A stretch of 52,616 nt of DNA from a virus (taxonomy: Duplodnaviria; Caudoviricetes). Positions 31,980-46,188 of the stretch are shown here, one piece after another. Under the pieces are notes generated by a model, which was not told where the DNA came from, did no database searches, and saw nothing but the letters and a program-made list of their open reading frames with translations. A program made the position numbers and the translations under genes. The stretch is taken from positions 1 to 52,616 of IMG/VR virus record IMGVR_UViG_3300020193_000035; one strand, 5' to 3'. Each line of letters begins with the position of its first letter. The first letter of the stretch is position 1.

Positions 31980-32150
31980 ATGGCAGTGAAACTATGGCGT
32001 CACCAGTGCATGGAGACCGGCAAAGAAGAGATCAATTACGAAGGCGAGGATTGTCCTCATTGCGGCGAAAAAAGCCCTGAGCCAGGCGAAAAAAGCCCTG
32101 AGCCCAAATTCAATGGATCTTTTCCAAATCCTCCAATGTTTTTGCCTTAG
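31980..32150 (+). CDS. Small Cys-containing late protein with internal duplication
   Basis: AAGGAGG RBS; late promoter at 31956-31961; CPHCG; GEKSPEP twice (21-nt repeat at 32064-32104). Confidence 0.7.
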   Translation: MAVKLWRHQCMETGKEEINYEGEDCPHCGEKSPEPGEKSPEPKFNGSFPNPPMFLP

Positions 32151-32221
32151 CCAGCAGACAATTCAGCACCTACCGAAGATTAACGGTAGCACAAGTCAAT
32201 GACATTCTGTGAGCATTGTTG

Positions 32222-32229
32222 TATAAATA
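32222..32229 (+). promoter_or_regulatory. T4-type late promoter driving the tmRNA
   Basis: Exact TATAAATA immediately upstream of the acceptor piece. Confidence 0.75.
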
Positions 32230-32230
32230 T

Positions 32231-32686
32231 GTCTGTAGCGTTGAAGCAAGCTGAAAAGCATACTGGACGCGGGGGCGGTACCCGCCGCCTCCACCATAAG
32301 GAAATTGAATGAATATTGAAACACATTTTAAAAATCAAGTAGATTCCGGTGCTACGAAAATGTTCTTTTACGGACTTGAAAATGAAGACCAATCCAAGGT
32401 TGAAATTAAAAGTCACAAAGGTACATTGGAAAGTTTTCCAAATACACTAGAATATATTAGACATTTAAGTGAAGGTATTCCATTATTCAAAGTTTCTTTA
32501 TGATGGGGGCGAAATAGGATCGACAGGTGTGTAATAGGCAAGTGGAGTTACCGGGCGCAAGCACCGTTATCGCAAGAAAACAAGTAACTGCAAACGATAA
32601 TTTCTTTGCACTGGAAGACAATCGCCTAGCGGCGTAATTCTTTCGGGGTTTTGGTGGTTGCACCTGGCAACAGAAGCAATCACCGC
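32231..32686 (+). ncRNA. ssrA: Circularly permuted two-piece tmRNA: acceptor piece ~32231-32296, intervening segment 32297-32504, coding piece 32505-~32686
   Basis: T-arm GCGGG-GGCGGTA-CCCGC then CGCCTCC-A-CCA; downstream GGGGGCG completes the acceptor stem with a G3:U70 pair; tag frame 32590-32637 reads ANDNFFALEDNRLAA*. Confidence 0.95.
32309..32503 (+). CDS. 64-aa ORF inside the tmRNA intervening segment
   Basis: AAGGA RBS just after the CCA; the ORF fills the segment and its stop ends 2 nt before the 5' G of the coding piece; AT-rich. Confidence 0.65.
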   Translation: MNIETHFKNQVDSGATKMFFYGLENEDQSKVEIKSHKGTLESFPNTLEYIRHLSEGIPLFKVSL

Positions 32687-32729
32687 ACAGTTGTCACAGA
32701 GAGTGACACACAGTAACAGGAGAATAGAA

Positions 32730-32969
32730 ATGGCACAATCAGGATACGAAATCCGTCTCGAATTACTCAAGATGGCAAAAGAGCTGCTGGAGCAGGAATA
32801 CAACTCCAAGCGAGATTTGATCATGAGCGAATATGGTTACAAGTGCGGTATAGCGATGGACGCTAAGACTGAACTCCCACCATTGCCCACCTTACCTAGC
32901 ATGCCAACCATGCAGGAAATCGTGGACAGGGCAGGCGAACTCAATCAGTTCATCAACCAGAAAAGCTGA
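32730..32969 (+). CDS. Conserved small phage protein
   Basis: AGGAGA RBS; GYEIRLELLKMAKELL. Confidence 0.8.
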   Translation: MAQSGYEIRLELLKMAKELLEQEYNSKRDLIMSEYGYKCGIAMDAKTELPPLPTLPSMPTMQEIVDRAGELNQFINQKS

Positions 32970-33245: not shown

Positions 33246-33542
33246 ATGACTCTTCAGACCAGGTCAATCAGGTCTTTCGACCTTGATACCAAGCAAGGCC
33301 GCCTTTTCAAGGCACTCGTGCTCAAAGGCGAAACGCTCACCGAGAGCCAGATTGTCAAGCGTTTTGGCATCGCCAATCCCACTGCTACGATCTCTACGAT
33401 CCGCCAGCGTGGTTATGCCGTTTATGCCAACCAGCGCACTGCTGGCAATGGCGTGAAGGTAACCGAGTACCGCCATGGTAACGCAAGCCGCAAGATGGTT
33501 GCTCTTGCTTACAAGGCACAGAGCCTAGGCATTACTGTCTAA
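33246..33542 (+). CDS. Small winged-helix DNA-binding protein
   Basis: LTESQIVKRFGIANPTATISTIRQRGY; strong RBS; own terminator. Confidence 0.75.
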   Translation: MTLQTRSIRSFDLDTKQGRLFKALVLKGETLTESQIVKRFGIANPTATISTIRQRGYAVYANQRTAGNGVKVTEYRHGNASRKMVALAYKAQSLGITV

Positions 33543-33614: not shown

Positions 33615-33643
33615 TTGACAACCCACGCAGAGCTAACTATACT
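33615..33643 (+). promoter_or_regulatory. Sigma70-type promoter for the kinase-ligase pair
   Basis: TTGACA-17nt-TATACT. Confidence 0.8.
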
Positions 33644-33668
33644 ATGCGCATATCATAGGAAAAAGACC

Positions 33669-34160
33669 ATGAAAGCCGCAGATGTTACCAAGACTGTTTT
33701 GTTCCTGATCGGACCTCCGGGTTCGGGCAAGACCACATGGGCACAACCTTATTTGGATCAAGGATGGACGCATATTTCAACGGATCAATGGATCGAACGA
33801 GTAGCTCGTGATCAAAAGAAAACCTACGGCGAAGTGTTCCAGTCTGAGATCAAAAATGCCGAACAAGACATGCAAGCTCGTTTGGACGCTGCTATTCAGG
33901 AAGGTCGCAACATCGTGTGGGATCAGACCAACATGAGTCGCAGAGGACGGCGTGCCAAGCTAGACAAATTGATCTCTGCAGGTTATACGGTGGATGCACA
34001 TGTGTTCATGCCCGACGGCCTGGAATTGAACCGTAGGCAGATGAAACGTGCTATAGAAACTGGCAAGACCATACCGCAGAGAGTGATTGACATGATGATG
34101 GACAATTATGAGTCTCCAATCGAAGCTGAAGGATTTGCCAGCATAACCGACCATGCCTAG
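33669..34160 (+). CDS. P-loop polynucleotide kinase-like protein (AAA_33)
   Basis: IGPPGSGKTTW, ISTD, VWDQTN; directly upstream of the RNA ligase. Confidence 0.85.
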   Translation: MKAADVTKTVLFLIGPPGSGKTTWAQPYLDQGWTHISTDQWIERVARDQKKTYGEVFQSEIKNAEQDMQARLDAAIQEGRNIVWDQTNMSRRGRRAKLDKLISAGYTVDAHVFMPDGLELNRRQMKRAIETGKTIPQRVIDMMMDNYESPIEAEGFASITDHA

Positions 34161-34166
34161 GAGAGC

Positions 34167-35348
34167 ATGATGAATTATGAATTTCCGCGCATCGAATGTA
34201 TAGAAGATGTTTTGCCAGCCATCAAAGGCCGCGACGAATTCGTAGTGGCTCATCGTGAATGGGGCACTGTGATCAACTATATGGTTTCCATGTCTGATAC
34301 TTTTCCGGACGTGGACTCTCCAACGATGGCCTTGCGTCGTGAATGTCGTGGGCTGCTGTTCTATCCAGACGGTCGCATCATGAGTCGTCGCCTGCACAAG
34401 TTCTTCAATGTGAACGAGCGCGAGGAAACTGCTGCGCAACGGATCGATCTGAGCCGGCCGCATGTGATACTGGAAAAGCTGGATGGATCCATGATCACTC
34501 CAGTCTATACCGACAAAGGTATACGTTGGGGCACCAAGATGGGCATCACTGATGTCGGCCAGCAGGCTGAACAGTTTGTCAACCGTCATAGTGTTTATCA
34601 GGAGTTTGCGGCCGAATGTCGTATCGCGGGTGTGACTCCCATCTTTGAATGGTGCAGCCGCAAGCAGCGCATCGTGGTAGACTATCCTGAAGATCGGCTG
34701 GTGTTGATAGCCATGCGCAACAATGTGACTGGCGCTTACACTTCTTTCCAGACTCTGAAAGGACTGGGTTCATACTGGCATATACCTGTGGTGCGTGCCT
34801 ATGCTGGAACCAGCCACAACATGCAGAGCCTGGTAGATGAGACTCGGGCCAGCGAAGGCATGGAAGGTTGGATCATACGTTTTGATGATGGGCAGATGCT
34901 CAAGGTCAAAGGCGAATGGTATCTACGTATCCACAAGACCAAGGACGGGCTTACTTTAGAAAAGAACGTGATCGATATGATCGTAAACGAAAAACTAGAC
35001 GACGTCAAGCCGTTCATGTTGGACGAAGATCGTCGGCGTGTGGAAGCCTTTGAGAAAGAGTTCTGGGATGGAGTAGCCAACAGTGTGGAAATATACGAAC
35101 GCTATTTCCAATCTGTTGTCAGCTCAGGACTGGATCGCAAGAGCTATGCATTGCAATATATGCCCACCGTCAAGGACAATGATCCTTTTGCTCCGTCATA
35201 CGTGTTTGCACGGTTTGACGGCAAAGATCCGCGCACCTTGGTATTGGAAGCTATCCGCAAGAACATTGGCACTCAGACCAAGGTAGATGCTGCCCGAAAC
35301 TTGTGGCGCGGTGCTCGGTGGAACTATTTGTTTGACGGAGATGCATGA
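34167..35348 (+). CDS. RNA ligase (T4 Rnl1-like)
   Basis: RECRGLLF, HKFFN, EKLDGS, FEW, EGWII, LKVKGEWY. Confidence 0.92.
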   Translation: MMNYEFPRIECIEDVLPAIKGRDEFVVAHREWGTVINYMVSMSDTFPDVDSPTMALRRECRGLLFYPDGRIMSRRLHKFFNVNEREETAAQRIDLSRPHVILEKLDGSMITPVYTDKGIRWGTKMGITDVGQQAEQFVNRHSVYQEFAAECRIAGVTPIFEWCSRKQRIVVDYPEDRLVLIAMRNNVTGAYTSFQTLKGLGSYWHIPVVRAYAGTSHNMQSLVDETRASEGMEGWIIRFDDGQMLKVKGEWYLRIHKTKDGLTLEKNVIDMIVNEKLDDVKPFMLDEDRRRVEAFEKEFWDGVANSVEIYERYFQSVVSSGLDRKSYALQYMPTVKDNDPFAPSYVFARFDGKDPRTLVLEAIRKNIGTQTKVDAARNLWRGARWNYLFDGDA

Positions 35349-40476: not shown

Positions 40477-40553
40477 GCGCCTGTAGCTCAATTGGTCAGA
40501 GCAGCGGACTCATAATCCGTTGGTTGGGGGTTCGAGTCCCTCCGGGCGTACCA
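40477..40553 (+). tRNA. tRNA with CAT anticodon, probably Ile2 (lysidine type)
   Basis: Cloverleaf; GACTCATAATC anticodon arm resembles tRNA-Ile2; CCA encoded. Confidence 0.9.
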
Positions 40554-40607
40554 TCTTTTCGCAGGAAAGAAAAAGAAGTTTTTTGGCTAACTCAACCTTG
40601 ATTGAAG

Positions 40608-40635
40608 TTGACCAGATAAATAGACATCATACTAT
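40608..40635 (+). promoter_or_regulatory. Nested promoters: late TAAATA (40617-40622) and possible sigma70 TTGACC-16-TACTAT
   Basis: Motifs immediately upstream of the leader ORF. Confidence 0.6.
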
Positions 40636-40645
40636 GAGGACTATG

Positions 40646-40798
40646 ATGCAAACAACGTCGGTAACATCAATGTTGGAAACATGCTCACCCGAGATCGAGG
40701 AACGCCAATCTTTTGGCAACACACTCGGTCACCAGTGGTATGCCAAGCCAGCAAGTAGTGATCCGGTCAGGTCCTCGTTGGGGGGCTGTTCCAAGTAA
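40646..40798 (+). CDS. Putative attenuator leader peptide (50 aa)
   Basis: GAGGA RBS at 40636-40640; MQTTSVTSMLETCSPEIEERQSFGNTLGHQWYAKPASSDPVRSSLGGCSK; 3' end overlaps the antiterminator strand; in-frame ATGs also at 40634 and 40643. Confidence 0.65.
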   Translation: MQTTSVTSMLETCSPEIEERQSFGNTLGHQWYAKPASSDPVRSSLGGCSK

Positions 40799-40832
40799 GA
40801 ACAGACTCAACAAACAACAAGGACCCCGGATC
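40760..40832 (+). promoter_or_regulatory. Antiterminator stem
   Basis: GATCCGG(TCA)GGTCCT(C)GTTG 40760-40780 pairs with CAAC(A)AGGACCCCGGATC 40815-40832 (17 bp). Confidence 0.8.
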
Positions 40833-40852
40833 GAAAGATACCGGGGTTTTTT
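40823..40852 (+). terminator. Intrinsic terminator, mutually exclusive with the antiterminator
   Basis: ACCCCGG-ATC-GAAA-GAT-A-CCGGGGT followed by TTTTT. Confidence 0.9.
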
Positions 40853-40872
40853 ATTCATCGGACACAAAGAGG

Positions 40873-40901
40873 TTGACTGGCGCAACGAAGCTTAGTATAG
40901 T
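40873..40901 (+). promoter_or_regulatory. Sigma70-type promoter
   Basis: TTGACT-17nt-TATAGT. Confidence 0.7.
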
Positions 40902-40907
40902 ACCATC

Positions 40908-41030
40908 ACTACGTGCGATGCGGAACGAGACTGCGGAAGGCACGCTAAACTTCTTCCATATGGGCGGAGGCCAGGATGAAATCTGCGGCGGTAACGCAGA
41001 GAGTAAAATTGGTCGGCGATCATTGGAACG
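40908..41030 (+). ncRNA. Unidentified structured RNA at the head of the tRNA array
   Basis: Five stems found by eye; no credible ORF or RBS. Confidence 0.5.
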
Positions 41031-41045
41031 AATGTTAAAGTATAT

Positions 41046-41124
41046 CTCGGTGTAGGATAGTCTGGTTCATTCCGCCTGCTTTGGGAGCAGGATGTCGCAA
41101 GTTCGAATCTTGCCACCGAGACCA
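41046..41124 (+). tRNA. tRNA-Pro(TGG)
   Basis: Cloverleaf, CCA. Confidence 0.93.
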
Positions 41125-41128
41125 TTAT

Positions 41129-41202
41129 TGGGGATTCGTCTAACGGTAGGACGTCGGATTTTGATTCCGACTATGGTGGTTCGAGTCCATCATCCCCAGC
41201 CA
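41129..41202 (+). tRNA. tRNA-Gln(TTG)
   Basis: Cloverleaf, CCA. Confidence 0.93.
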
Positions 41203-41214
41203 ATTAGCCAATTT

Positions 41215-41289
41215 GGAGCGTTCGTCTATCGGCTAGGACGCTGGCCTTTCACGCCGGAAAGAGGGGTTCGATTCCCCTACGCTCTACCA
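41215..41289 (+). tRNA. tRNA-Glu(TTC)
   Basis: Cloverleaf, CCA. Confidence 0.93.
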
Positions 41290-41316
41290 AACACCATACT
41301 ATTTTGTATATTTAAT

Positions 41317-41394
41317 GTACCGATACCAGAGCGGTCTAATGGCTACGCCTGCAAAGCGTGTGATTCGTAGGTTCAAATCCTACTCGGTACTCCA
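41317..41394 (+). tRNA. tRNA-Cys(GCA)
   Basis: Cloverleaf, U73 discriminator, CCA. Confidence 0.92.
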
Positions 41395-41402
41395 AACGAA
41401 AT

Positions 41403-41485
41403 GCGCTAGTGGCGGAATTGGTAGACGCACTGGATTTAGGTTCCAGCGGGCAACCGTGGGGGTTCGAGTCCCTCCTGGCGCACCA
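41403..41485 (+). tRNA. tRNA-Leu(TAG)
   Basis: Cloverleaf with variable arm, CCA. Confidence 0.95.
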
Positions 41486-41494
41486 ATGATCAAT

Positions 41495-41570
41495 GGGGGT
41501 GTAGCTCAGTTGGGAGAGCGTTAGCTTTGCAAGCTAAATGTCGTCGGTTCGATCCCGTCCACCTCCACCA
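41495..41570 (+). tRNA. tRNA-Ala(TGC)
   Basis: Cloverleaf, G3:U70, CCA. Confidence 0.95.
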
Positions 41571-41577
41571 AATCAAT

Positions 41578-41656
41578 TCCGCAGAACCCGAGCTAGGTGC
41601 ATGGGCGTGACTGTTAATCACTGGTTAGCTGAGTTCGAATCTCAGATGCGGAGCCA
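41578..41656 (+). tRNA. tRNA-Asn(GTT), atypical
   Basis: GTT anticodon loop, T-arm and GCCA end; irregular base 8, acceptor base pair 7 and D-arm. Confidence 0.8.
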
Positions 41657-41660
41657 ATTT

Positions 41661-41739
41661 GACTCGTTAGCATAGTCTGGCCTATTGCGCCGCCCTGTCA
41701 CGGCGGAGGACACCGGTTCGAATCCGGTACGGGTCGCCA
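41661..41739 (+). tRNA. tRNA-Asp(GTC)
   Basis: Cloverleaf, GCCA. Confidence 0.93.
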
Positions 41740-41746
41740 TATAAAT

Positions 41747-41823
41747 GAGTCAGTAGTTCCAATTGGCAGAACGGCAGTCTCCAAAACTGCATGTTGTAGG
41801 TTCGAATCCTACCTGGCTCGCCA
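41747..41823 (+). tRNA. tRNA-Trp(CCA)
   Basis: Cloverleaf, GCCA. Confidence 0.93.
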
Positions 41824-41861
41824 GTTTAGTTTGTTTGATTTTTTTCGGTTTTGCTCTTTTA

Positions 41862-42518
41862 TCACTTGGCTAGATAGGTACGATTGAGCATGGTGTGGTT
41901 GTGGTCGGTAGGACCCCAATCACCATCAGGATGGAAAGCAATCACAGTCATGAAACTGTTTTCTGTGCGAAAGCGATGGCGTTCCTGCTCGGACAGAGAA
42001 AAGGTAGTGCCCGTGAGCAATGCATCTTCTTCTATCGCACCTGTTTCACCGTGGCTGCTGAATCCTTGTCCATCGATCACACAACCTATGCGTATGCTGG
42101 GGTGACGATGGAAAGTCTGGTCGATGCCAGGCGGGAAGTAAAGTAGATTGAGACTGCTGTCGCCCATGCGTGCTGGATACACCAGCAAGCTGTCGCTGCA
42201 CCCATCGATGTAACTGAGTCGGCCTTGTTTTTCGACCCAGCCGATGGTGTTCATGACCATGTATCCTAGGCGCAAGACCAAGAACAAACGATCTTCGGCC
42301 ACGCCGTTGACCTTATTGGCTACGCTGAGTCCAAAGTATTGTCTTGCTTCCAGGTGATGTGTTTTGCCATCCACTTCCAAGTGGGAGTTGCCATAGCTGT
42401 AGCCATAGATAGAACAATACTTGGCGAACTCAGGCAATTGGAACTTTTCGTTGTGGAACATGTGTCCTTTGGTAGGATACATACTGGTGAGTTGGTCAAG
42501 ATTTTTGCCGATAAGCAT
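41862..42518 (-). CDS. Cupin-domain protein
   Basis: FPPGIDQTFHRHPS.R.G.V..GQG...HRFRT...FHPDGDWGP; minus-strand TAAATA at 42542-42547. Confidence 0.85.
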   Translation of the reverse strand: MLIGKNLDQLTSMYPTKGHMFHNEKFQLPEFAKYCSIYGYSYGNSHLEVDGKTHHLEARQYFGLSVANKVNGVAEDRLFLVLRLGYMVMNTIGWVEKQGRLSYIDGCSDSLLVYPARMGDSSLNLLYFPPGIDQTFHRHPSIRIGCVIDGQGFSSHGETGAIEEDALLTGTTFSLSEQERHRFRTENSFMTVIAFHPDGDWGPTDHNHTMLNRTYLAK

Positions 42519-42565
42519 TTGAAATATTTCCTTTCAATGAATATTTATTGTTCTAAAGAACAACC

Positions 42566-42659
42566 ATGTCTGCCTCGAGCTAGGTTCGGGGCCGCGAATT
42601 CATTGCCGCCTGGTACATGCCAGTGAATGTTGGGTGCGAAAAGCCCAATACGGAGACAT
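42566..42659 (+). ncRNA. Candidate four-way-junction (tRNA-shaped) RNA of unknown class
   Basis: Closing stem ATGTCT/AGACAT enclosing three hairpins; no canonical anticodon loop, TTC loop or CCA. Confidence 0.45.
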
Positions 42660-42680
42660 AACCGTAGCGAACGAGATCGC

Positions 42681-42767
42681 GGGGAAGCGGCGAAGTTGGA
42701 GAGTCACGGCAGACTGTAAATCTGTTGCCTTAGGGCTGAGTTGGTTCGAATCCATCCTTCCCCACCA
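42681..42767 (+). tRNA. tRNA-Tyr(GTA)
   Basis: Cloverleaf with variable arm, CCA. Confidence 0.92.
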
Positions 42768-42909
42768 TAAATATCCCAACCAAAAGATTTGGTCAAACAC
42801 AAGGATCAACCATGCCAAGCAGTGGTAGTATCTAGTCGATATTGACAAGTTAGATGTATCACATCTCCTGTTGGTATCGACGCAATATTCGCGTTAGCAG
42901 GAGAAGATC

Positions 42910-43224
42910 ATGGGCTCCTTCATCCAAAATAGATTCGAGATCCTGGCACATTGGATCTCAGCGAACCTAGGACATCCTTATGCTTTCACCAGCGCACTTT
43001 TTGTCGTGACGCTGTGGGCAGTGACAGGACCGGTCTTTGGTTACTCAGACACGTGGCAGCTGGTGATCAATACCAGCACCACCATCATCACTTTCCTCAT
43101 GGTGTTCTTGTTGCAGAATACTGGCAACAGGACCATTGAGGAACTGCACGAGCGCCTTAGGGTGCTTGAAGAACAGAACAATGAATTGTTACACGAGATC
43201 AGGCAGATGCGAGCTGCCGATTGA
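42910..43224 (+). CDS. Low-affinity iron permease family (Fet4-like) small membrane protein
   Basis: WAVTGPVFGYSDTWQLVINTSTTIITFLMVFLLQNT signature. Confidence 0.9.
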   Translation: MGSFIQNRFEILAHWISANLGHPYAFTSALFVVTLWAVTGPVFGYSDTWQLVINTSTTIITFLMVFLLQNTGNRTIEELHERLRVLEEQNNELLHEIRQMRAAD

Positions 43225-43262
43225 TGAGATACAACATTGGTTATATACTTTTTGCTGTTTGC

Positions 43263-43337
43263 GGGCGGTTAGCTCAGTGGTAGAGCGCCTCGTTTACACC
43301 GAGGATGTCGGGAGTTCGACCCTCTCACTGCCCACCA
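43263..43337 (+). tRNA. tRNA-Val(TAC)
   Basis: Cloverleaf, CCA. Confidence 0.95.
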
Positions 43338-43342
43338 GACAT

Positions 43343-43417
43343 GCCGGATTAGCTCAGCGGTAGAGCAGCGGTTTTGTAAACCGAAGGTCGGGAGTTCAAT
43401 CCTCTCATCCGGCACCA
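43343..43417 (+). tRNA. tRNA-Thr(TGT)
   Basis: Cloverleaf, CCA. Confidence 0.95.
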
Positions 43418-43423
43418 ATTTAT

Positions 43424-43499
43424 TGCGGGTTACGTCAGTGGTCAGACTATCAGGCTCATAACCTGAAGGACGGAGGTTCGAATCCTTCACCCGCAACCA
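43424..43499 (+). tRNA. tRNA-Met(CAT), initiator-like
   Basis: TCAGGCTCATAACCTGA arm and CCCGCAACCA end resemble alphaproteobacterial tRNA-fMet. Confidence 0.88.
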
Positions 43500-43537
43500 T
43501 ACCAAAATAATTAACGCAGTTGGCATTGAAAAATTAA

Positions 43538-43629
43538 GGAAGTGTGGCAGAGCCCGGTTTAATGCACCTGACTTGAAATCAGACGAGGGGGCGACTCCTC
43601 CGTGAGTTCGAATCTCACCGCTTCCGCCA
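43538..43629 (+). tRNA. tRNA-Ser(TGA)
   Basis: Long variable arm, GCCA. Confidence 0.93.
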
Positions 43630-43657
43630 AACCTGGTTTGGCTGTTTTGAAGATTAA

Positions 43658-43749
43658 GGTGGGTTGGCCGAGAGGTTGAAGGCACTGGTTTGCTAAACCG
43701 GCGTACCTTGTAAAAGGTACCATTGGTTCGAATCCAATACCCACCGCCA
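43658..43749 (+). tRNA. tRNA-Ser(GCT)
   Basis: Long variable arm, GCCA. Confidence 0.93.
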
Positions 43750-43753
43750 TATC

Positions 43754-43830
43754 GCCTCCGTAACTCAGTGGACTAGAGTCATGCGCTTCGAACGCATTGG
43801 TCGGGGGTTCGAATCCCTCCGGAGGCTCCA
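43754..43830 (+). tRNA. tRNA-Arg(TCG)
   Basis: Cloverleaf, ATGCG-CT-TCG-AA-CGCAT, CCA. Confidence 0.92.
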
Positions 43831-43847
43831 GGGCATATAGTTCAGTT

Positions 43848-43921
43848 GCGGGCGTGATGTAATGGAAGCCTGAAACCCTGCCATGGTTTACGCACGAGTT
43901 CGATTCTCGTCGCCCGCTCCA
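43848..43921 (+). tRNA. tRNA-Gly(GCC)
   Basis: Cloverleaf with weak D-arm, TCCA. Confidence 0.88.
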
Positions 43922-43974
43922 CTTTATCCCACCTAGTATTCTCACGGACATCGCAATGGGAGTTTGGTGACTTT

Positions 43975-44050
43975 GGGCCGGTAACTCAATAGGTAGAGTA
44001 TCAGACTTTTAATCTGAGAGTTGTGGGTTCAAGTCCCACCCGGCCCCCCA
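43975..44050 (+). tRNA. tRNA-Lys(TTT)
   Basis: Cloverleaf, CCA (C discriminator). Confidence 0.93.
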
Positions 44051-44054
44051 AACT

Positions 44055-44137
44055 GCAAGCATGGTGGAATTGGCAGACACGAGAGACTTAAAATCTTTTG
44101 CTTAGGCGTGCCGGTTCGAATCCGGCTGCTTGCACCA
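44055..44137 (+). tRNA. tRNA-Leu(TAA)
   Basis: Cloverleaf with variable arm, CCA. Confidence 0.93.
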
Positions 44138-44160
44138 GGAATACCAAAATAATTTTTTCA

Positions 44161-44243
44161 GCCCTAGTGGTGGAATTGGTAGACACGCCTGACTCAAAAT
44201 CAGGTTCGCAAGAGTGGGGGTTCGAGTCCCTCCTGGGGCACCA
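44161..44243 (+). tRNA. tRNA-Leu(CAA)
   Basis: Cloverleaf with variable arm, CCA. Confidence 0.95.
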
Positions 44244-44269
44244 AAATAAATAAAAAACTGCGAGAGAAC

Positions 44270-44821
44270 ATGTTCTTTACAAAGCTAAAATTACCTGTTG
44301 AATTGAAGCCATATGATTATGGAATGAACAACCCAGAAGAATTCTGCGAGTTGGAAATGTCAATGGACCATATCAATAGAGAGTTGCATGACTTTTTACG
44401 CAGTCTAAATTTAGAAATAATAAAGCCTCGATATTTTCACAGCGGCCCTCCACATATATATCGCTTGCACATAGACATTCCAACAAGACCAAATCGTTAC
44501 ACAAGGCTGAACTGGGTGTTTGGTGGTGCAGGAAGCGAAATGGTTTGGTATGCATCGAAACCAGGCAAGGTTCCAACTGTGATGCAAAATAACTTGGGTG
44601 AAAATTATCAAATATACGACCTTGAGGATTGTGACGAAATTGGACGAGGACATGTTATTGGTCCAAATCTTGTGGACGTGGGTACCATACACAATTTAAT
44701 AGGTGGTAGCGAACAGCGACATTGTTACTCTTTCTTTCTTAGAGATAAGAAAGGAAACGGTGATAGACTAGAATGGTCACAAGCGATTGAGAAATTTGCT
44801 CCGTTCATGGAGAGATCATGA
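44270..44821 (+). CDS. Cupin/2OG-Fe(II)-like protein, paralogue A
   Basis: RLHID...NWVFGGAGSEMVWY...TIHNL...RHC (HxD...H...R). Confidence 0.7.
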   Translation: MFFTKLKLPVELKPYDYGMNNPEEFCELEMSMDHINRELHDFLRSLNLEIIKPRYFHSGPPHIYRLHIDIPTRPNRYTRLNWVFGGAGSEMVWYASKPGKVPTVMQNNLGENYQIYDLEDCDEIGRGHVIGPNLVDVGTIHNLIGGSEQRHCYSFFLRDKKGNGDRLEWSQAIEKFAPFMERS

Positions 44822-45384
44822 ACGCTACCTCTGACAGATGCTATAGAAATATCAATATACCAGTGGATTTCAGGCCATGGGACTTTGGTTATGCAAACAA
44901 AAATGAATTTTGTGAGCTTGATATCAAGCCCAACATGGTCAATACAGAAATACATGATTTTTTTGATTCAATTGGTCTTGTGCTTTTACGAGGAAGATAT
45001 TTTCATTGTTTGCCCGGTGTGAGATACAATTTACACACAGACAATAAATTTGAATCCAGTAGAGAACTGATAAAAGTCAATTGGGTATTTGGTGGTGCAG
45101 GCAGCAATATGATTTGGTACAATCTTAAACCAGGTAAAGGTCCTAGGATCTATAAAAATAGCATGGGCGAAGAAATAGTAGGGTACAATGAAGAAGACTG
45201 TGTTGAAATATGCCGTGCACATATTCCCAAACTGGCGATTGTAAATGTTGCGGTTGTGCATACAATACAAAATGCAAACGAATTTAGAGATTGCTATTCT
45301 ATGGTATTGGCGCACAAGCATAATAAAGTAAGATTGGAATGGAATGAGTCTATGGAAAAGATGTCTCCATATATCACAAATTAG
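44818..45384 (+). CDS. Cupin/2OG-Fe(II)-like protein, paralogue B
   Basis: NLHTD...NWVFGGAGSNMIWY...VVHTI...RDC; ATGA coupling. Confidence 0.7.
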   Translation: MNATSDRCYRNINIPVDFRPWDFGYANKNEFCELDIKPNMVNTEIHDFFDSIGLVLLRGRYFHCLPGVRYNLHTDNKFESSRELIKVNWVFGGAGSNMIWYNLKPGKGPRIYKNSMGEEIVGYNEEDCVEICRAHIPKLAIVNVAVVHTIQNANEFRDCYSMVLAHKHNKVRLEWNESMEKMSPYITN

Positions 45385-45422
45385 GTTGTTCTAAAACAAG
45401 CAATCTGTTATATTACAATATT

Positions 45423-45446
45423 GCGAGCGTGGAGAAATTGGTAAAC
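45423..45446 (+). pseudogene. 5' fragment of a tRNA-Leu-like gene
   Basis: GCGAGCG-TGGAGAAATTGGTAAAC matches the acceptor/D-arm pattern of the three Leu tRNAs here, then runs straight into an AAGGAGG RBS. Confidence 0.65.
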
Positions 45447-45459
45447 AAAGGAGGGCACG

Positions 45460-46062
45460 ATGCCTAGCGTATTCTTAGTAAGCGATACGCACTTTGGTCA
45501 CGAAAAGTGCTGCACGGTCTTCAAACGTGTAGACGGTAACCCGTTGCGTCCTTTTGCTTCAGCAGAAGAAATGGACGAAACCATGATCGCACTCTGGAAC
45601 GAACGTGTGCGCCCTTCTGACAAGGTCTACCACTTGGGTGATGTAGTGATCAGCCGCAAATACCTCAAGACGTTGAGCCGGCTCAATGGCGACAAGGTCT
45701 TGATCCGTGGCAATCATGATATCTTCCACTTGGAGGACTACCTGGAGCATTTCCGTGACGTGCGTGGTTACCATGTGATGAACGGACTTATTTTAAGTCA
45801 TATCCCTGTCCACGAATCAAGTCTTGGTAGGTTTGGTTGTAATATACACGGACACTTACACGCCAACAGAGTTATGAAGGCGAGAGGTGTCGATGTTAGA
45901 ACTGGTGAAATCTTATACAGCGATGAGATTGATCCAAGATACTGGTGTGCCTGTGTTGAACAAACAGACTTCGCTCCTATCCTGTTCGAGGATGTCTTAA
46001 AGAGGATTACGGAACAAGGTGGCACCGTGGGATTTAGAAACGGCAATGGGCCCACGATGTGA
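45460..46062 (+). CDS. Calcineurin-like metallophosphoesterase
   Basis: SDTHFGH, HLGD, GNHD, LSH, HGHLH. Confidence 0.93.
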   Translation: MPSVFLVSDTHFGHEKCCTVFKRVDGNPLRPFASAEEMDETMIALWNERVRPSDKVYHLGDVVISRKYLKTLSRLNGDKVLIRGNHDIFHLEDYLEHFRDVRGYHVMNGLILSHIPVHESSLGRFGCNIHGHLHANRVMKARGVDVRTGEILYSDEIDPRYWCACVEQTDFAPILFEDVLKRITEQGGTVGFRNGNGPTM

Positions 46063-46113
46063 GTGTTGACACCGTGGGCTTCATGCATATATAATGCCTG
46101 TGTGAAAAGATAT

Positions 46114-46188
46114 GCGGGTGTAGCTCAGTGGTAGAGCTTCTGCCTTCCAAGCAGAATGTCGTGGGTTCGAATCCCATCGTCCGCTCCA
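46114..46188 (+). tRNA. tRNA-Gly(TCC)
   Basis: Cloverleaf, TCCA; promoter TTGACA(46066)-18-TATAAT. Confidence 0.95.

Follow-up and report, generated by a model that had tools for sequence, protein, structure and literature searches.

A putative protein gene in the spacer of a permuted transfer-messenger RNA gene from an uncultured lake phage

The DNA analyzed here, hereafter called the window, is a 52,616-nucleotide (52.6-kb) fragment of an uncultured virus of the Caudoviricetes (IMG/VR record IMGVR_UViG_3300020193_000035). It carries a permuted gene for transfer-messenger RNA (tmRNA), the spacer of which is filled with a small open reading frame (ORF). The genome of this phage is probably very large because CheckV estimates the window to be only 14% complete, and lake-water metagenomes contain DNA that is near-identical to the window. 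An earlier note, made from the letters of the window, had placed the CCA end of the acceptor piece at position 32296 and the start of the coding piece at 32505, with 208 nt between them, and had proposed searches with ARAGORN and Rfam. ARAGORN calls a permuted tmRNA at 32204-32728 on the + strand, with the tag ANDNFFALEDNRLAA, and its verbose output ends the 3′ tRNA domain (CCA) and begins the 5′ tRNA domain at these same two positions. Both relevant Rfam models are matched over their full lengths and above their gathering scores. Specifically, alpha_tmRNA (RF01849) scores 121.9 bits (gathering score 50) at 32195-32684, covering model positions 1-355 of 355, and tmRNA_permuted (RF04321) scores 108.4 bits (gathering score 47) at 32235-32637, covering model positions 1-213 of 213. 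The stretch from CCA to GGGGGCG appears in both Rfam alignments as a single long unaligned insert.

The acceptor piece is located upstream of the coding piece, as the permuted class requires, and its CCA is encoded (32294-32296). The 7-bp acceptor stem is formed by GGGGGCG (32505-32511) and CGCCUCC (32286-32292), and it includes a G3·U70 pair (G32507·U32290), which is an alanine identity element. The locus belongs to the permuted two-piece tmRNA family. Moreover, the arrangement is not a chimera or an assembly artefact, because an independent DNA contig from another lake sample (run X3) spans 32119-32800 with a single difference. Additional viral contigs (L002, L003, L004, and L006, representing three distinct versions) also carry the complete arrangement, and a fifth (L005) carries it but has a truncated coding piece. 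No cultured relatives were found among 50,697 phage records by blastn with the tmRNA or tblastn with the ORF, and none of 59 candidate stretches in bacterial genome contigs was confirmed as a bacterial relative. No match to the tmRNA partner protein SmpB (PF01668) was obtained in the window record, itself 14% complete, nor in G003, a relative with a complete 364-kb genome, nor in a further relative (G005). Presumably, SmpB is supplied by the host.

The ORF occupies 94% of the intervening segment (IVS, or spacer). Its ATG lies 12 nt from the CCA and 6 nt downstream of a Shine-Dalgarno (SD) sequence (AAGGA, 32298-32302), and its UGA stop codon (32501-32503) ends 1 nt ahead of the 5′ end of the coding piece. 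These features agree with the AT-rich, 64-codon ORF with a ribosome binding site that the earlier note had described as filling the segment. When the IVS is shuffled with its dinucleotide content preserved, only 6 of 1000 versions contain an ORF of at least 64 codons (mean, 28 codons). Homologues of the 64-residue product are found at 11 viral loci, with identities of 67-86%. The homologous ORFs are nested in a permuted tmRNA gene in L002, L003, L004, and L006, and occur as free-standing copies in L007-L012, where neighbouring genes abut them and there is no surrounding tmRNA. In G003, a free-standing copy resides ~42 kb from a tmRNA gene with a 71-nt spacer, and in G005 such a copy is located 1.5 kb upstream of a tmRNA gene with a 68-nt spacer. 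Only one copy of the family was present per record (five fragments). The profile search advocated in the earlier note, conducted with nine copies against 1.84 billion proteins, recovered a conserved family. It comprises 49 cluster representatives at E ≤ 1e-3, of which 16 reach E ≤ 1e-10, and the lengths are 59-94 residues in almost every case.

Among the spacer copies in the window, L002, L004, and L006, the ratio of nonsynonymous to synonymous substitution rates (dN/dS) is 0.06-0.26 at dS values of 0.45-0.98 (Nei-Gojobori), which indicates that the ORF is under purifying selection while residing inside the spacer. Every spacer copy ends in LFKVSL followed by the stop codon, and free-standing homologues end in LFKETA, LFKNK, or LFKELQ. 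This spacer-specific C-terminus suggests that the copies diverged while inside the spacer. The family, with proteins of ~60-75 residues, displays the conserved pattern F-x2-Q ... FFYG-x-E ... IKSHKG-x-LD-x-FP ... PLFK, which the window protein matches. There are 29 invariant columns in an alignment (A1) that, like a second alignment of 51 rows (A2), has the window protein as row one. With A2 as its input, AlphaFold2 predicts a short helix followed by four strands, with a predicted local distance difference test score (pLDDT) of 94.3 and a predicted template modelling score (pTM) of 0.80. Judged by these sequence comparisons, the spacer ORF is a real gene.

Searches for a function were uniformly blank. 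Pfam gives no family at E ≤ 1 for the spacer ORF and nothing for three proteins, and PHROGs give nothing for these three proteins or for all 51 members of A2. A profile search of the PDB has a best hit of only E = 0.83. Likewise, no usable fold match emerged when Foldseek was run against the PDB (best E of 0.13, to protein L B1) or from a wide VIA-align comparison (best Z of 2.8), and the ESM Atlas yields only unnamed or unrelated clusters, at 0.90-0.92. The free-standing copies have no consistent neighbour partner. Their neighbours include a GIY-YIG gene plus small ORFs, and SbcD-like and clamp-loader-like genes that were recognized by reading the translations alone, with no family search. 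Three relatives with free-standing copies also carry tRNA genes with a CTA anticodon (L009:2250-2325, L010:1413-1487, and L012:2380-2454; called tRNA-Pyl by ARAGORN), which are amber-suppressor-like and hint at TAG reassignment in the three phages. The gene copy in L009 ends with TAG.

The two ends of the spacer are complementary. Positions 32293-32305 pair with 32492-32504 at 12 of 13 sites, comprising 10 Watson-Crick and two G-U pairs with a C·A mismatch (32294/32503), and an extra U32306-A32491 pair extends this to 13 of 14 over 32293-32306 and 32491-32504. The 5′ strand of this closing helix, which reads UAAGGAAAUU, holds the CCA and the SD, and the 3′ strand, GUUUCUUUAUGA, encodes V-S-L and the stop codon. 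In both the minimum free energy and centroid structures predicted by RNAfold, the helix is stacked on the acceptor stem (z = -3.66, with 0 of 100 shuffles folding as well). The predicted duplex energy is -12.3 kcal/mol, or -27.7 kcal/mol together with the acceptor stem, and in the equilibrium fold of the precursor the SD is paired with a probability of 1.00. As a side observation, the independent lake DNA of run X3 has C rather than T at 32297, which would abolish the U32297-A32500 pair in the closing helix and leave a mismatch there.

Comparative data reveal how widespread this helix is. In an ARAGORN survey of 132 sequences (the window plus loci L002-L132, fetched for the most part through a 20-nt motif from the beginning of the coding piece), 87 permuted tmRNAs were called, and their spacers range from 8 to 247 nt. 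We assessed covariation in 50 unique viral pre-tmRNAs with spacers of at least 40 nt, with or without ORFs. In this set, A73-U(-1) is paired in 96% of the RNAs, the C74·A(-2) mismatch is conserved (unpaired in 47 of the 50), and C75-G(-3) and A76-U(-4) are paired, with about ten more pairs beyond. Helix positions 6-14 are paired in 84-100% of the RNAs, with three to six pair types per position. Overall, pairing reaches 91%. Random reassignment of partners between sequences lowers it to 64%, with 0 of 1000 such shuffles attaining 91%, and sliding the register gives 38-60%. Thus, RNAfold and covariation agree with the earlier note, in which the segment ends were proposed to extend the acceptor stem and to bury the CCA, the ribosome binding site, and the stop codon. 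One correction is needed, however, in that the helix is not special to this particular ORF. Its terminal UGAU is the lineage-wide partner of ACCA and is present also in ORF-less spacers. Because short spacers that lack ORFs have the helix as well, it is a general feature of pre-tmRNAs in this lineage that was not built for the spacer ORF. Rather, the gene seems to have been fitted into the helix, taking its SD from one strand and its stop codon from the other, because the spacer copies share the helix-encoded VSL end and free-standing homologues end differently.

The spacer also stands out from its surroundings. Among the window, L002, L004, and L006, the IVS is 76-87% identical at the nucleotide level, compared to 44-71% for the acceptor piece, 46-65% for the coding piece, and 20-55% for the flanks, and the only neighbour shared by these loci is orf79 (32730-32969; 42-46% protein identity). 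High identity starts in ..CCTCCACCA and stops in TGATGGGGG, and the simplest route of exchange would be recombination within the conserved borders formed by the acceptor stem. Guanine plus cytosine (GC) content is 0.26-0.33 within the IVS versus ~0.46 around it. For the window ORF the value is 0.29 (0.18 at third codon positions) in a neighbourhood of 0.47, and the ORFs of relatives with a GC content of 0.35-0.38 have values of 0.32-0.33.

A tree of 77 unique tmRNA bodies, built with the spacers removed, places the window among alpha-like viral tmRNAs, where its nearest relative (L067, 77% identity) has a 74-nt ORF-less spacer. L002, L004, and L006 form a clade with the short-spacer tmRNAs L009, L134, and L005b (100 in the Shimodaira-Hasegawa-like approximate likelihood ratio test). 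An approximately unbiased (AU) test rejects the four cassette-bearing tmRNAs as one group (p = 0.0096, log-likelihood difference of 57.5). Vertical co-divergence was considered as the sole cause of the conserved island. It is unrejectable on divergence, given that the p-distance of the tmRNA is about equal to the proportion of synonymous differences in the ORF, and is rejected by the tree test. The spacer therefore appears to behave as an exchangeable cassette that is present in two distant tmRNA lineages.

Two further loci document change at these sites. At L137:10500-10600, an L002-like tmRNA has a ~52-nt spacer that keeps TAAGGAAATT and the last ~40 nt of the ORF (..LSESIPLFKVSL and the stop codon), with the rest lost. 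This is a natural deletion derivative in which the closing helix is retained and the gene is gone. At L005:1-1300, a cassette-bearing tmRNA is interrupted ~70 nt into its coding piece by a GIY-YIG/NUMOD3 endonuclease gene on the minus strand (340-906), after which comes a second permuted tmRNA (1005-1226) that is complete and has a spacer of 25 nt. These tmRNA loci are recombination hot spots. The presence of the cassette in two distant lineages, its foreign base composition, and its natural deletion bear out the insert-like character that the earlier note had ascribed to the spacer.

The gene appears to lack a promoter of its own, because a gap of only 12 nt between CCA and ATG leaves no room for one after the acceptor piece. 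A promoter-like element (Table 1) ends 5 nt before the acceptor piece. Its TATAAATA motif is found once in the window, at this site, with 0.61 occurrences expected by chance. Of 75 unique viral tmRNA upstream regions, 54 have TATAAAT at this same offset (73-82 nt ahead of the CCA end, with one at 66), which makes it a conserved box, and several of these regions also have a TTGAC -35 box. A generic scan for sigma-70 promoters and terminators listed no upstream promoter and only AT-rich hits inside the ORF; it passed over the promoter-like element owing to the A at position 6 of its -10 hexamer, and the element was instead recognized by comparison among the viral loci. We infer that the ORF is transcribed within the pre-tmRNA, 74 nt from the transcription start.

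Table 1. Positions of the tmRNA pieces, the spacer gene, and associated elements in the window
Feature	Position	Strand	Remarks
Putative promoter-like element	32199..32229	+	ATGACA 32199-32204, 17-nt spacer, TATAAATA 32222-32229
Acceptor piece	32235..32296	+	3′ half of tRNA-like domain, T-arm; RF04321 start 32235, ARAGORN end 32296
3′ acceptor strand	32286-32292	+	CGCCUCC, then ACCA 32293-32296
Closing helix, 5′ strand	32293..32306	+	ACCAUAAGGAAAUU; includes CCA end and SD AAGGA 32298-32302
Intervening segment (IVS)	32297..32504	+	208 nt; absent from mature tmRNA by homology; apparently exchangeable cassette
Spacer gene	32309..32503	+	Predicted small alpha/beta protein (MNIETHFK...PLFKVSL); ATG to TGA, 64 codons
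Closing helix, 3′ strand	32491..32504	+	AGUUUCUUUAUGAU; encodes last codons V-S-L and stop
Coding piece	32505..32684	+	ARAGORN and Rfam
5′ acceptor strand	32505-32511	+	GGGGGCG
Tag reading frame	32590-32637	+	ANDNFFALEDNRLAA and stop; ends in LAA degradation tag

Other spacers carry cargoes of their own. The earlier note had recommended that intervening segments be compared across phage permuted tmRNAs, and different ORFs are indeed present behind a closing helix of the same type. A second, unrelated cargo is a hydrophobic peptide of 38-59 codons (MKNPLVKKISVAMFKLYILWSICAD...) found in L043, L054, L081, L124, L059, L090, L099, L113, and L030. These spacers are 159-192 nt in length, and the peptide ORFs have their own SD and, as in the window, a UGA located 1 nt before the coding piece. 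Their dN/dS values are 0.07-0.51 (27 of 28 pairs, those with unsaturated dS). In another set of loci (L024, L026, L073, L074, L071, L052, and L015), the spacer ORFs cross the predicted RNase P site and end in ...GAK at a UAG located 13 nt into the mature coding piece, such that processing would remove their stop codon.

RNA data provide a weak hint regarding expression. A single metatranscriptome study contains RNA contigs of close relatives (~95% identical) whose first positions, 32514 and 32517, immediately follow adapter; none of them enters the IVS. Contigs of this kind cannot map RNA ends. For an L002-like relative, a contig from an RNA library connects the spacer ORF to the coding piece at a depth of 3. 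Two other candidate signals were rejected. Small shares of sequence words in RNA runs were traced to conserved tmRNA parts of other organisms, and joints skipping ~206 nt come from other tmRNAs with short spacers rather than from this phage.

Given these findings, we consider it likely that this large uncultured lake phage has a functional-looking permuted tmRNA in which the spacer has been replaced by a 208-nt cassette with a genuine gene for a 64-residue protein, and that this gene is expressed from the tmRNA promoter, with ribosomes translating the precursor while the closing helix is still open. A single precursor would be made from one strong promoter immediately upstream. Because the SD and AUG would be transcribed ~190 nt ahead of their pairing partner, ribosomes could engage the RNA while it is still being made and translate the gene. 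A ribosome finishing at the UGA (32501-32503) would cover the 5′ acceptor strand, and so translation and formation of the tRNA-like domain would be mutually exclusive on any one molecule. Once the last ribosome has gone, the helix might zip onto the acceptor stem, burying the SD and ending initiation. Processing of the tRNA type would come next, with RNase P cleaving at G32505 and 3′ trimming proceeding to the CCA at 32296, to give the two tmRNA pieces. In this manner, translation and maturation might be coupled. The cassette probably derives from the capture of a free-standing gene, has passed from one tmRNA gene to another, unrelated one via recombination at the acceptor-stem borders, and can be lost by deletion, with the spacer acting as a portable expression slot.

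Several observations weigh against this proposal. Full pairing of the SD at equilibrium means that translation could be very low, and in L004 and L005 the SD is weakened to AAAGAAA. The RNA data consist of low-depth assembled contigs of relatives for which DNA carry-over is possible. The group rejected by the AU test was named after the first tree was seen, and several rows of that tree are long-branched. Free-standing copies are AT-rich as well (GC content of 0.33-0.35 versus 0.43 for the genome in L008-L010), and thus low GC content alone is no proof of recent transfer. The deletion in L137 shows that at least one phage can do without the gene. Finally, the blank Pfam, PHROG, PDB, and fold searches leave the protein with no assignable function.

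We have weighed three other explanations. The cassette might be a selfish mobile insert that spreads for its own sake, with the 64-residue protein aiding transfer or serving as neutral cargo, and with no benefit to the phage. Its occurrence in two distant tmRNA lineages, its foreign composition, and the fact that its loss in L137 leaves the tmRNA intact would all be expected of such an element, and true selfish elements do visit these genes, as revealed by the L005 locus that is split by a GIY-YIG/NUMOD3 endonuclease gene. However, Pfam and PHROG searches reveal no nuclease, integrase, or other mobility domain among 51 family members, and the ~60-residue fold is without a significant match. 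The family is mostly free-standing within ordinary strings of genes, and the strong purifying selection suggests a useful product. We therefore regard a selfish insert as unlikely. Of the two options raised in the earlier note, the "cargo mRNA" has been strengthened into what appears to be a real protein gene under selection, and the selfish insert has found no mobility function to support it.

The same selection bears on whether the ORF is an untranslated passenger, recently inserted and kept silent with its SD locked in the helix, so that the spacer is simply degraded after processing. This is the situation described for the Coxiella 23S rRNA IVS, whose ORF is decaying and whose product is apparently not made in vivo, according to the available portion of that report (PMC4990558). 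Four diverged spacer copies (dS up to ~1) nevertheless keep an intact frame with dN/dS values of 0.06-0.26, their common spacer-specific C-terminus suggests that they diverged inside the spacer, AAGGA is at the right distance from the ATG in three of four lineages, and a second, unrelated family of spacer ORFs displays the same pattern. Even with an SD pairing probability of 1.00, a weakened SD in L004 and L005, and the loss of the ORF from L137, a silent passenger seems very unlikely. It is also conceivable that the spacer serves as a self-sensing, near-non-stop message. The released mRNA would end 1 nt past the UGA, its product would be partly tagged by its own tmRNA, and the level of the product would track tmRNA activity. 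Trans-translation targets ribosomes in which hardly any mRNA extends beyond the A site in the 3′ direction. The position of the UGA (32501-32503), with the predicted RNase P cut right after 32504, would suit this function. The unrelated membrane-peptide family has the same stop geometry (1 nt before the end), and processing would turn the spacer ORFs that extend 13 nt past the start of the coding piece into genuine non-stop messages. Yet UGAU is conserved in ORF-less spacers as the partner of ACCA, and so the helix alone explains where the stop codon lies. In addition, the excised spacer is predicted to fold as a panhandle that hides the SD. We consider such self-sensing quite improbable.

A broader version of our preferred explanation, that of a gene translated from the pre-tmRNA before the helix closes, can be offered only as tentative speculation. 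Perhaps the spacers of phage two-piece tmRNAs constitute a general slot that captures small genes, which would use the strands of the closing helix as ribosome binding site and stop codon and would be swapped among unrelated phages as cassettes bounded exactly by RNA-processing sites. Each transcript might first provide a burst of messenger activity, with a length set by the time of helix closing, and then serve as a stable-RNA precursor. Furthermore, the product of the released spacer might be policed by the tmRNA itself, given how near to the 3′ end of that RNA its translation would stop.

Other genes near the tmRNA in the window are worth recording. A 98-residue winged-helix protein (33246-33542; HTH_39, 21.6 bits with a cut-off of 21.3) has homologues beside the tmRNA at no fewer than 17 other viral loci, making it a conserved tmRNA neighbour. 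At 33615-35348, an AAA_33 kinase-like gene (91.6 bits) is followed by a 393-residue ORF, and this pair is also located beside the tmRNA in L017. At a greater distance, ARAGORN and Rfam identify an array of 21 tRNA genes on the + strand (40477-46188).

If our preferred explanation is correct, there are several consequences. Annotation pipelines call tmRNAs without looking inside them, and spacers that are treated as discarded would here hide a selected protein gene. The locus would produce a natural bifunctional transcript, first an mRNA and then a stable-RNA precursor, in which competition between ribosomes and tRNA-processing enzymes is directly testable. The data point to a new type of slot for gene cassettes in phages of aquatic habitats; in the sequences examined, purifying selection acts on at least two cargo families that are unrelated to one another. 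A search with RF04321 across viral collections, in which every spacer is read, is a logical target for a census.

The base system, a permuted tmRNA, is known, and the unusual part is the protein-gene cargo. Like other permuted tmRNA genes (RF04321/RF01849), including those of Caulobacter and the OM43 phage Melnitz, the window locus has the acceptor-spacer-coding order, an encoded CCA, and a tag ending in LAA. Unlike the usual members of this class, its spacer holds an apparently selected protein gene with an SD rather than a short, discarded loop. The report on Melnitz describes 53 two-piece phage tmRNA structures, 50 of which are aquatic, and in its available portion spacer ORFs are not mentioned (PMC9004378). 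A 2025 paper on a tmRNA database covers 97,179 sequences, 11,946 of them permuted; in the accessible part of its text, the only spacer contents mentioned are one tRNA-Ala gene (a "unique feature") and a repetitive element in the longest spacer, and the only protein genes are those for endonucleases in T-loop group I introns (PMC11915505). In our full-text literature searches, protein genes within tmRNA spacers were nowhere described, although supplementary tables might list long spacers.

Two systems that place protein genes within stable RNAs invite comparison. T-loop group I introns with a homing endonuclease resemble the cassette in that a protein gene is nested in a tmRNA gene and is absent from the mature RNA, as far as the accessible text describes them (PMC11915505). 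In contrast, the window insert lies between the CCA and the 5′ end rather than in the T-loop, and its removal would be carried out by tRNA-processing enzymes. No intron family is among 23 Rfam hits at gathering score, and no nuclease domain was detected for the spacer protein in Pfam and PHROG searches. Thus, the ribozyme core, T-loop position, and nuclease that mark a group I intron with a homing endonuclease are all lacking. The closest functional analogue appears to be the Coxiella burnetii 23S rRNA IVS (helix 45, with an S23p ORF), which is horizontally acquired and excised by RNase III, and whose ORF is apparently untranslated and decaying, based on the portion of the report available (PMC4990558). 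Both are stem-closed, ORF-bearing segments of stable-RNA precursors. The window spacer is not a member of the 23S rRNA IVS/S23p class, as its host RNA is a tmRNA and its protein matches no Pfam family at E ≤ 1. Relative to the Coxiella element as it is described there, the window cassette would also differ in its excision enzyme, its protein is unrelated, and its ORF appears to be maintained by purifying selection.

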